Virus record (IMG/VR): IMGVR_UViG_2713896833_000003
Location: 1-14,385 of that record
Length of the DNA stretch: 14,385 nucleotides
Strand: one strand, 5' to 3'
From: a virus
Taxonomy: Duplodnaviria > Heunggongvirae > Uroviricota > Caudoviricetes
Shown here: positions 8,869 through 9,752 of the stretch, piece after piece
How the letters are laid out: every line of letters begins with the position of its first letter
Numbering within the stretch: position 1 is the stretch's first letter
Translations under genes and position numbers: made by a program
The notes under the pieces: generated by a model
What the model was told of the DNA's origin: nothing
Databases searched by the model: none
What the model saw: the letters and a program-made list of their open reading frames with translations, nothing else

Positions 8869-8965
8869 ATGACCTCCACATATTGCGTGATGAGCATATT
8901 ATTTCACGCAAATATTTTGCGCAAGTTGATTTGCTTAACGCGCAATAAAGAAATGTAATAAACGC
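8869..8965. promoter_or_regulatory. Divergent cI/cro control region (oR/pR/pRM-like) with palindromic operator-like repeats
   Basis: 97-bp intergenic region with TTGCGTGA-N13-TCACGCAA (8883-8911), palindrome TTGCGCAA (8917-8924) and TTGCTTAACGCGCAA (8932-8946); cI ATG lies only about 5 nt after a TAATAA element, suggesting a leaderless cI transcript. Confidence 0.55.
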
Positions 8966-9658
8966 ATGAACATAGGAAACCGAGTCAGACAACTTCGCCA
9001 GGCGAAGAACATGAAAATCGCCGATCTCGCTGAAGCAATAGGAGTGGATGCGGCGAATATCTCACGCCTGGAAACAGGTAAGCAGAAACAATTCACTGAA
9101 CAAGCCCTGAGTAATATTGCCAGGAGCTTAGGTGTTGATATTGCTGATCTCTTTACCTCAGACGTCAAAAGTAATACTGTATGTAAAAACAGTATTAGTG
9201 AGGATGTTGCGCAGGTGAAGGATGTATTCCGTATTGAAATGCTGGATGTCAGTGCCAGTGCGGGAAATGGCCTTATCCAGGGCGGTGATGTCATTGATGT
9301 GATTCATGCCATTGAATACAGAACTGATAATGCTGTATCGATGTTTGGCGGACGGCCAGCCAATCACATTAAAGTTATCAACGTTCGTGGGGACAGTATG
9401 TGTCCAACCATTGAGCCAGGAGATCTCATCTTCGTTGATGTCAGTATCAATCAGTTTGATGGAGATGGTATCTATGTATTTGGTTTTGATGATAAAATTT
9501 ATGTCAAACGACTGCAAATGATACCTGACAAACTACTGGTGATTTCTGATAACCAGATTTACCGTGAATGGGGAATTACCAGCGAAAATGAACACCGGTT
9601 TATGGTCTTTGGAAAGGTCTTAATCAGCCAGTCACAAACCCTTAAGCGACACAATTAA
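8966..9658 (+). CDS. CI-like phage repressor (XRE HTH plus S24 LexA-type autopeptidase domain)
   Basis: N-terminal HTH IADLAEAIGVDAANISRLETGKQ; Ala-Gly candidate cleavage site (SASAGNG); Ser nucleophile in VRGDSMCPTIEPGD and Lys in YVKRL; 230 aa. Confidence 0.85.
   Translation: MNIGNRVRQLRQAKNMKIADLAEAIGVDAANISRLETGKQKQFTEQALSNIARSLGVDIADLFTSDVKSNTVCKNSISEDVAQVKDVFRIEMLDVSASAGNGLIQGGDVIDVIHAIEYRTDNAVSMFGGRPANHIKVINVRGDSMCPTIEPGDLIFVDVSINQFDGDGIYVFGFDDKIYVKRLQMIPDKLLVISDNQIYREWGITSENEHRFMVFGKVLISQSQTLKRHN
9173..9196. promoter_or_regulatory. Consensus SOS (LexA) box palindrome AATACTGT-ATGTAAAA-ACAGTATT located inside the cI coding sequence
   Basis: Matches CTGT-N8-ACAG with AT-rich spacer and extended TA flanks; perfect 8-bp inverted arms; falls in codons 70-77 (linker between HTH and S24 domains). 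Confidence 0.45.
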
Positions 9659-9678
9659 CCCTTACCTCCTCATCAATT

Positions 9679-9700
9679 AGCCACCCAAAGGTGGCTTTTC
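9679..9700 (+). terminator. Rho-independent terminator downstream of cI (AGCCACC-CAAA-GGTGGCT-TTTT)
   Basis: 7-bp stem, 4-nt loop and T-run starting 21 nt after the cI stop codon. Confidence 0.6.
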
Positions 9701-9713
9701 ATTACCCTTTAAA

Positions 9714-9752
9714 TTGCATATCTCGCAACAAAAACACTTGCATAATGCGCAA
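9714..9752 (+). promoter_or_regulatory. pL/oL-like region: two 15-bp operator-like sites TTGCATATCTCGCAA and TTGCATAATGCGCAA overlapping -35/-10-like hexamers
   Basis: Sites share the TTGC(A)-N5-(C)GCAA form with sites in the cI/cro intergenic region; TTGCAT and CATAAT hexamers present; lies between the cI terminator and the leftward gene block as in lambda. Confidence 0.45.

Follow-up and report, generated by a model that had tools for sequence, protein, structure and literature searches.

The 14,385-nucleotide stretch analysed here (positions 1 to 14,385 of IMG/VR virus record IMGVR_UViG_2713896833_000003, hereafter the window) is a lambdoid Escherichia coli prophage of the mEp460 / SfII / Stx2a_1447 / ST64B immunity type, and our subject is the region in which its two regulatory genes diverge. 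On the plus strand, positions 8966-9658 code for a cI repressor of 230 amino acids (Pfam Peptidase_S24, E = 6e-19, and HTH_3, E = 1e-10), while on the minus strand positions 8608-8868 code for a Cro-like protein of 86 amino acids (Pfam HTH_3, E = 6e-10). The gap between the two genes is 97 bp in the window and 97-98 bp in all relatives. Copies of a 15-bp motif, TTGC-N7-GCAA, lie in this gap (the right operator, oR) and again beyond the cI terminator (the left operator, oL). We put at roughly three in four the probability that the locus is a lambda-type immunity switch, in which 15-bp operators at the promoters pR, pRM and pL would be bound by cI and Cro, and in which the cI mRNA would be leaderless. 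Within that reading, which protein binds which site, the order of occupancy, activation from position -42 and the exact transcription start are points that we infer.

Exact copies of TTGC-N7-GCAA occur three times in the window, at 8931-8945, 9714-9728 and 9738-9752. Shuffled versions of the window contain 0.57 +/- 0.77 exact motifs, with 6 of 200 shuffles reaching three. All three copies are confined to the intergenic DNA on either side of cI, about 200 bp in all, where around 0.008 would be expected (Poisson probability of at least three about 1e-7, by our own arithmetic, scaled from the shuffle rate). A further copy, TTGCGTGATGAGCAT at 8883-8897, carries one mismatch; as a class, one-mismatch motifs are at chance level across the window (11 seen, 10.8 expected). 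When the window was scanned with a position weight matrix built solely from the sites of relatives, four sites scored about 16-20 bits, against 6.9 for the next-best window position and a mean shuffle maximum of 10.7. The four are site A (oR1-like, 8883-8897, 16 bits), which spans the predicted pR start and shares 2 bp with the pR -10; site C (oR3-like, TTGCTTAACGCGCAA, 8931-8945, 17-18 bits), whose left half is the pRM -35; oL2 (TTGCATATCTCGCAA, 9714-9728, 19 bits); and oL1 (TTGCATAATGCGCAA, 9738-9752, 20-21 bits), whose left half is the pL -35. The initial annotation of this DNA had placed TTGC-N7-GCAA sites on both sides of cI, and they are indeed there, three exact and one with a single mismatch. 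Its further suggestion that they mirror lambda oR and oL holds for the succession of cI, terminator and oL/pL (cI-tIMM-oL/pL in lambda), but not for the number of sites: where lambda has three full sites at each operator, oL here has two, and oR has two full sites plus a palindrome formed by a shared half-site, with a further weak site inside cro.

To follow these sites beyond the window we compared relatives whose cI is 50-97% identical, comprising genomes of Shigella, three Citrobacter, Pseudescherichia, Klebsiella, Buttiauxella and Trabulsiella, the phages ST64B, phiNP, Klebsiella ST147-VIM1phi7.2 and Cronobacter ENT47670, and metagenomic and viral contigs (80 loci, with variants tallied over 21 oR and 43 oL haplotypes). 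A search of related elements for the same half-site had been proposed as a check in the initial annotation, and the motif is present on both flanks of cI in every relative examined. Across nine relatives, sites A and C do not vary at any of their 16 half-site positions, whereas elsewhere in the intergenic region 26 of 81 positions are invariant (Fisher p = 2e-7); of the central positions of these two sites, 1 of 14 is invariant. Reading along the intergenic alignment, the invariant blocks are the left and right halves of site A (TTGC, 8883-8886; GCAT, 8894-8897), part of the pR -10 (TTA, 8899-8901), all ten bases of a palindrome block, TTGCGCAAGT (8917-8926), the two halves of site C (TTGC, 8931-8934; CGCAA, 8941-8945), the pRM -10 candidate TGTAAT (8954-8959), after which the next 6 nt vary, and the cI start ATG (8966-8968). 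The same pattern of half-site conservation is seen downstream of cI. Taking 35 distinct sites together, the consensus is TTGC[G/A][T/C]-N3-[G/A]CGCA[A/T], 15 bp in length, with positions 1-4 and 11-15 nearly fixed and positions 5-10 free, the centre preferring A/T. Among the oR and oL haplotypes, it is mainly the site centres and spacers that vary. In Cronobacter ENT47670, with a cI 50% identical, the layout is the same and the motif has shifted to ATGCG-N5-CGCAT at both oR and oL. On this pattern of conservation, the TTGC-N7-GCAA repeats flanking cI are almost certainly genuine operators. One IMG/VR contig (L063), the sole pattern-breaker among the 21 oR haplotypes, combines a change of GAGCAT to GATCAT in site A with a change of TTGC to TTGA in site C; this double change could represent an operator (virulent-type) double mutant or a sequencing error.

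Three predicted promoters are interlaced with these sites. On the minus strand, pR has a -35 of TTGCGC (8924-8919) and a -10 of TAATAT (8901-8896), with a predicted start near 8889. On the plus strand, pRM has TTGCTT (8931-8936) and TGTAAT (8954-8959), with a predicted start at 8966, and pL has TTGCAT (9738-9743) and TATCTT (9761-9766), with a predicted start near 9773 that would direct transcription rightward, towards yfdP through int. All three keep an exact 17-bp spacer though the spacer sequence drifts: 20 of 21 oR haplotypes have 17 bp in both the pR and the pRM spacer and a 19-bp gap between site A and the palindrome, and 40 of 43 distinct oL haplotypes carry TTGC[AG][TC]-17-TATCTT (or TATCAT). 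Five of the six bases of the pR -10 are invariant (8896, 8897 and 8899-8901), as are positions 9760-9763 at pL in seven relatives. The divergent pR and pRM are overlapped by repeated pseudo-palindromic sites (A, C and the palindrome), and a second candidate operator cluster, at 9714-9752, lies at pL beyond the repressor gene; there the gap between oL2 and oL1 is 7-9 bp and variable across relatives. A terminator scan predicts an intrinsic terminator of the cI transcript on the plus strand at 9679-9700, with a stem kept in relatives by compensatory changes (GCCACC/GGTGGC, GACCAC/GTGGTC, CCGCC/GGCGG). It separates cI from the same-direction pL, and the distance from oR to oL is about 0.8 kb.

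As annotated, the cI reading frame begins at 8966. No start codon comes between this one and the in-frame stop at 8936-8938, and it alone retains helix 1 of the helix-turn-helix (HTH) domain, the HTH_3 profile beginning at residue 7. The codon is ATG in 13 of 13 relatives; residues 1-15 are conserved while the DNA changes are mostly synonymous, and the N-terminus MNIGNR[VI]R is kept. RefSeq PGAP and the SfII record use the 230-amino acid start, whereas the GenBank records of mEp460 (L001, 6512), Stx2a_1447 (L003, 2012) and phiNP (L096, 1373) start the repressor at an internal Met16, equivalent to 9011 in the window. As a start at Met16 deletes HTH helix 1, these records are probably mis-annotated. 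Judged by these comparisons, the annotated start at 8966 is the true one, which corrects the database records that begin at Met16.

The initial annotation had read the cI transcript as leaderless, noting the lack of a Shine-Dalgarno (SD) sequence and a TAATAA -10-like element about 5 nt before the ATG. The first of these observations is borne out: the 20 nt upstream of cI (TAAAGAAATGTAATAAACGC) pair with the anti-SD at -0.9 kcal/mol, compared with -5.7 to -11.6 kcal/mol for nine other neighbouring genes with confirmed starts; two genes with uncertain starts, the xis-like gene and int, give -1.9 and -2.8 kcal/mol. The second needs revision. TAATAA is present at 8956-8961, 4 nt from the ATG, but its last two bases vary among relatives and as a -10 it would place +1 inside the start codon; the conserved -10 is TGTAAT. 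Of 21 haplotypes, 18 have this hexamer 6 nt before the ATG and two more have it at 7 nt, with varying bases between; at 6 nt the canonical +1 falls on the A of the cI ATG. A fixed distance across variable bases is hard to explain unless the transcription start is tied to the ATG. The computational evidence - no SD, the position of the start codon, and a fixed distance between -10 and ATG in relatives - thus favours the original interpretation, and the cI mRNA is probably leaderless, with +1 at 8966. There is precedent for such an arrangement. The lambda cI mRNA transcribed from pRM is leaderless, the PY54 cI and cro mRNAs have been found leaderless by experiment (PMC4488713), and the PaaR2 mRNA of CP-933P was shown to be so by rapid amplification of cDNA ends and the N-terminus of the protein (PMC8630535). 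A weak operator-like 15-mer, ATGTAATAAACGCAT at 8953-8967, takes in the pRM -10 and the cI ATG and ranks sixth in the window at 6.2 bits. Most relatives retain its right half, several have lost it, and the 15-mer could be either a low-affinity autorepression site or a coincidence.

The alternative that fares best, though we consider it unlikely, accepts the operators as real but places the start of the cI mRNA upstream, in the intergenic region or inside cro, with SD-independent translation from an A-rich, unstructured leader. A/U-rich leaders can support SD-independent initiation in E. coli, and the 20 nt before the cI ATG are A/U-rich. TGTAAT is also without the canonical A at -11, and a promoter scan lists another plus-strand candidate, TCCACA-16-TATTAT (8875-8902). 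However, we reject this candidate as it is not conserved, its -35 lying in the variable SD region of cro and its -10 losing the final T in several relatives, whereas TTGCTT / TGTAAT is the only invariant plus-strand hexamer pair with 17-bp spacing. The distance of 6-7 nt from TGTAAT to the ATG, fixed while the intervening bases vary, likewise argues against a start further upstream.

The middle of oR is occupied by the palindrome TTGCGCAA (8917-8924), which contains the pR -35 and lies around -42 of pRM - the position from which, in lambda, cI at oR2 activates pRM. It forms the shared half-site of two overlapping registers, being the right half of B' (8910-8924) and the left half of B (8917-8931). 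With its centre 42 bp upstream of the cI ATG, register B is the oR2-like candidate; it abuts site C with one shared base in all relatives. Both registers are full sites in C. amalonaticus (B, 15.5 bits; B', 13.4 bits), and B' is a full site in Klebsiella phage ST147 (14.2 bits).

Longer palindromes had also been reported in the initial annotation. They exist in the window, as 8-bp arms at 8883-8890 and 8904-8911 and as a 32-nt imperfect dyad about 8914, but are conserved in the close clade only. We therefore reject the 8-bp inverted repeat as a family-wide functional unit: its right arm is lost beyond the close clade, and the inner part of the long palindrome, ACGCAA (8906-8911), is found only within the E. 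coli / Shigella / Citrobacter clade. This bears on a second alternative, in which the bound unit would be 29 bp (8883-8911 and 8917-8945; TTGCG ... CGCAA), occupied for instance by a repressor tetramer, instead of a 15-bp dimer site. The window dyad comprises two such units, B and C abut in every relative, and oL of ENT47670 has two directly abutting full sites. Against this, the inner half of the left unit is missing in more distant relatives, the oL sites are separated by a variable 7-9 bp, and the 15-mer model accounts for every conserved block; we regard 29-bp units as improbable. Weaker still, and very improbable in our view, is the idea that the TTGC blocks are nothing more than -35 elements belonging to three promoters, with coincidental GCAA and true repressor sites elsewhere. 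In its favour, the -35 hexamers of pRM and pL match the left halves of site C and oL1, and that of pR lies in the palindrome. Against it, the right halves GCA[A/T] are just as invariant, at a distance of exactly 7 bp; sites A, oL2 and D (a site within cro, described below) overlap no -35 yet bear the full motif; the two halves change jointly to ATGCG / CGCAT in ENT47670; and invariance extends to -35 bases that depart from the consensus (TTGCGC in place of TTGACA), something that promoter function by itself would not require.

The cI repressor combines an N-terminal HTH_3 domain of the 434 type with a C-terminal LexA/S24 domain carrying the motifs SASA-GNG (the Ala-Gly site), GDSM and VKRL, from which self-cleavage with a Ser-Lys dyad is predicted. 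The nearest solved chains, all distant, are ClgR, the 434-derived domain dh434 (HTH, E = 2e-4) and UmuD. BLASTP of the cI N-terminal domain against Cro gives no alignment; the register between them required a MAFFT alignment with relatives, in which the Cro recognition helix ATLSRIE aligns with ANISRLE of cI, under a common pattern A-x-[ILV]-S-R-[ILV]-E. Similar recognition helices would fit with cI and Cro reading one half-site, as in 434 and P22.

In the lambda-type switch that we favour, cI and Cro would bind the 15-bp operators as dimers, reading the outer four bases on each side (TTGC ... GCA[A/T]) and leaving the central 7 bp without sequence-specific reading; Cro, with its similar helix, probably binds the same DNA. 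Repressor at site A and at TTGCGCAA, over the pR -35, would shut off cro and the rightward early genes. Occupation of site C, over the pRM -35, could bring about shut-off by Cro or negative autoregulation, and repressor on register B, at -42, could activate pRM. At the other end, oL1 (over the pL -35) and oL2 would silence the leftward early operon, yfdP through int. The pRM transcript would begin with the A of the cI AUG, give or take one base, and DNA damage would lead to induction by RecA-stimulated self-cleavage of cI.

Several observations weigh against this interpretation. First, the pRM -10 TGTAAT carries G at -11, where sigma-70 promoters nearly always have A, so pRM would be weak or require activation. 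Second, the site from which activation would come is itself poor in the window, where B and B' are half-sites only (-0.7 and -3.5 bits, respectively), and as register B overlaps site C by 1 bp the two may not be occupied simultaneously. Third, site C scores as high as site A, so that the order of affinities on which a working switch depends cannot be read from the sequence. Fourth, the relatives are homologous to one another, and the conservation counts are therefore not independent events. Finally, the literature searched yielded no footprint, electrophoretic mobility shift assay or mapped 5' end for this allele or its homologues; the supplements of PMC6333337 and PMC7067206 hold expression tables, with no transcription start site at the ST64B cI start. 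In favour of the interpretation, the ST64B homologue in Salmonella D23580 (cI 83% identical) is expressed in 17 of 17 conditions at 65-520 transcripts per million, and shock with peroxide or nitric oxide raises cro together with genes and a non-coding RNA downstream of cI (PMC7067206). Constitutive cI with damage-induced cro and pL-side genes is the behaviour expected of such a switch.

A further operator-like sequence, site D (GTGCGCCTTACGCAC, 8833-8847), lies inside cro over codons 8-12, at about +43 to +57 from the predicted pR start. At 8.7 bits, the window has the weakest version among relatives; at the same position, -133 or -134 from the cI ATG, 11 relatives score 12-18 bits (for example, TTGCGATTTTCGCAA). 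Codon usage across the site is restricted. Leu8 is always TTG and Arg9 always CGN, whereas Arg6 uses both CGN and AGR, and at codon 11 the four-fold third base is G without exception, compared with 0 of 13 other four-fold sites in cro being invariant. Synonymous sites in the centre of the motif vary freely. As far as codon choice can tell, the conservation of site D is not explained by coding alone. This raises the tentative possibility, which we think doubtful, of a switch that works by choice of register: TTGCGCAA would be shared by two mutually exclusive registers, site D, 84 bp (about eight helical turns) from B, could form a small loop of repression over pR, and activation and autorepression of pRM would be set by both rather than by three independent sites. 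If true, register choice with looping would be a logic absent from lambda, and site D and the overlapping-register palindrome are the only features of the locus that may have something new to teach.

How does the locus compare with characterised switches? With lambda it shares divergent cI and cro, operators over pR and pRM, a second set past the cI terminator at a pL of the same direction, a position at -42 of pRM that is a candidate for activation, the S24 C-terminal domain and a cI without an SD. It differs in the operator, which is 17 bp in lambda and 15 bp (TTGC-N7-GCAA) here, in the 434-type HTH_3 DNA-binding domain, in having two oL sites against three, in the extra site inside cro, and in an oR made up of two full sites and a half-site palindrome whose register overlaps site C. 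With rexAB absent, only about 55 bp separate the cI stop from oL, and oL is correspondingly close to oR. The similarity to 434 and P22 concerns the HTH_3 fold family, the four conserved outer bases in each half with a variable centre, and recognition residues common to repressor and Cro. The operators differ in sequence and spacing (that of 434 is ACAA-N6-TTGT), as does the arrangement of sites, and sequence identity is low, P22-like C2 and HK022 cI being 41-43% identical to the window cI. On these comparisons, operator recognition is in the 434/P22 style with a different specificity.

Among other E. coli prophages, CP-933P of O157:H7, with PaaR2 and YdaS, also has a 97-bp intergenic region, intergenic operators and an oL/pL analogue, and PaaR2 activates pRM at low dose; in contrast, PaaR2 is an unrelated protein of about 15 kDa without S24, coded in a toxin-antitoxin operon, and its repeat units are different and 18 bp long (PMC8630535). 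The e14 element of E. coli K-12 (ymfK/ymfT/ymfL) has a YmfL 97% identical to that of the window and a repeated motif on both sides of its repressor gene, but its repressor matches over only 39 residues in S24, YmfT has no detectable similarity to Cro, and its operators are of the form TGTACC ... GGTACA. With only YmfL in common, we reject e14 as an instance of the same immunity system; that it shares YmfL without the repressor, Cro or operators indicates that the immunity cassette is a separate mosaic module. The literature on e14, YmfK and YmfT gave no operator data. ST64B (sb38/sb39; STMMW_20241 / SL1344_1967), mEp460, SfII, Stx2a_1447 and phiNP belong to the immunity family itself, with cI 68-99% identical and the same motif, site positions and promoter spacings as the window. 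For these phages and for the window we found no operator description in the searchable literature, hits to the operator strings being unrelated. The switch is a previously undescribed member of the textbook lambda-type design, and as such one more example rather than a new principle. Its use is practical, in that knowledge of the operator, the three promoters and the true cI start allows superinfection immunity groups to be predicted, and reporters and operator mutants to be designed for studies of induction.

This immunity type is widespread. Over segment 8500-10200, identity is 97-98% to phages PhiR47_1 and mEp460, 96% to Stx2a_1447 / WGPS2 and 91% to Shigella phage SfII, and 1041 of 5426 complete E. 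coli genomes (about 19%) carry a copy at 90% identity or above. Carriers of the type include the Shiga-toxin phages Stx2a_1447, WGPS2 and Stx2k, the serotype-converting SfII of Shigella, and ST64B of Salmonella. As to the gene neighbourhood, cro has an SD, GGAGG at 8873-8877 on the minus strand (anti-SD pairing -10.0 kcal/mol), and the next gene beyond it is a cII-like gene of the CP76/YmfL type (8058-8615, minus strand). Strain KKa014 has a genome identical to the window over 8600-9800; its prophage adjoins tRNA-Thr/proA, and yfdP, yfdQ, yfdR, yfdT, a xis-like gene and int follow downstream of cI. Left of about 5500 the KKa014 gene coordinates fail to fit the window, yielding wrong start codons, so the two differ there, which points to a mosaic late or Q region; we excluded KKa014-derived gene coordinates left of that point from use.

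Finally, some 590 nt (9773-10360) separate the predicted pL start from yfdP (10361), the first annotated gene. No convincing open reading frame, tRNA or Rfam hit occurs in this stretch, which folds with an overall z-score of only -1.5; Rfam finds nothing in the window at the gathering threshold, nor on 9700-10420 at E <= 1. To judge from its matches, it is a mosaic of non-coding modules common to unrelated phages. A block just after pL, ACAGGCAGGACGCCCACGAAGTAGCC, is common to ST64B, phiNP, Buttiauxella and e14 (L095, L096, L012 and L005, respectively) and is absent from the window. In ST64B the pL leader includes the non-coding RNA STnc1310 (L095, about 2333-2406), 326 nt past the cI stop and ending in a terminator-like hairpin, which is induced by peroxide and nitric oxide (PMC7067206). 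In the window itself, about 9805-10060 is 78-89% identical to unannotated spacers beside tRNA genes in unrelated phages: in P1 between trnI and ban (L104, 1501-1680), in SPN1S, in D6 directly after a CAT-anticodon tRNA (L102, 801-912), and in phiV10-like phages, where it ends at a tRNA-Arg (L098, 1501-1745). A consensus fold of five sequences has 47 pairs, ten of them with two-sided compensatory changes, and the segment may be an uncharacterised structured RNA module absent from Rfam 15. Further along, 10050-10172 matches, at about 90% identity, the stretch that directly precedes DicF in a Qin-like phage (L103; DicF at 933-984 by Rfam). It is followed at 10174-10223 by a DicF-like 3' part, UUUGGCGGUACCAGUUU, with a perfect 10-bp stem and then a U-run, resembling a terminator. 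The segment lacks about 19 nt of the DicF 5' seed, which places it below the Rfam threshold; it is possibly a diverged small RNA of the DicF type, or an attenuator in the pL leader.

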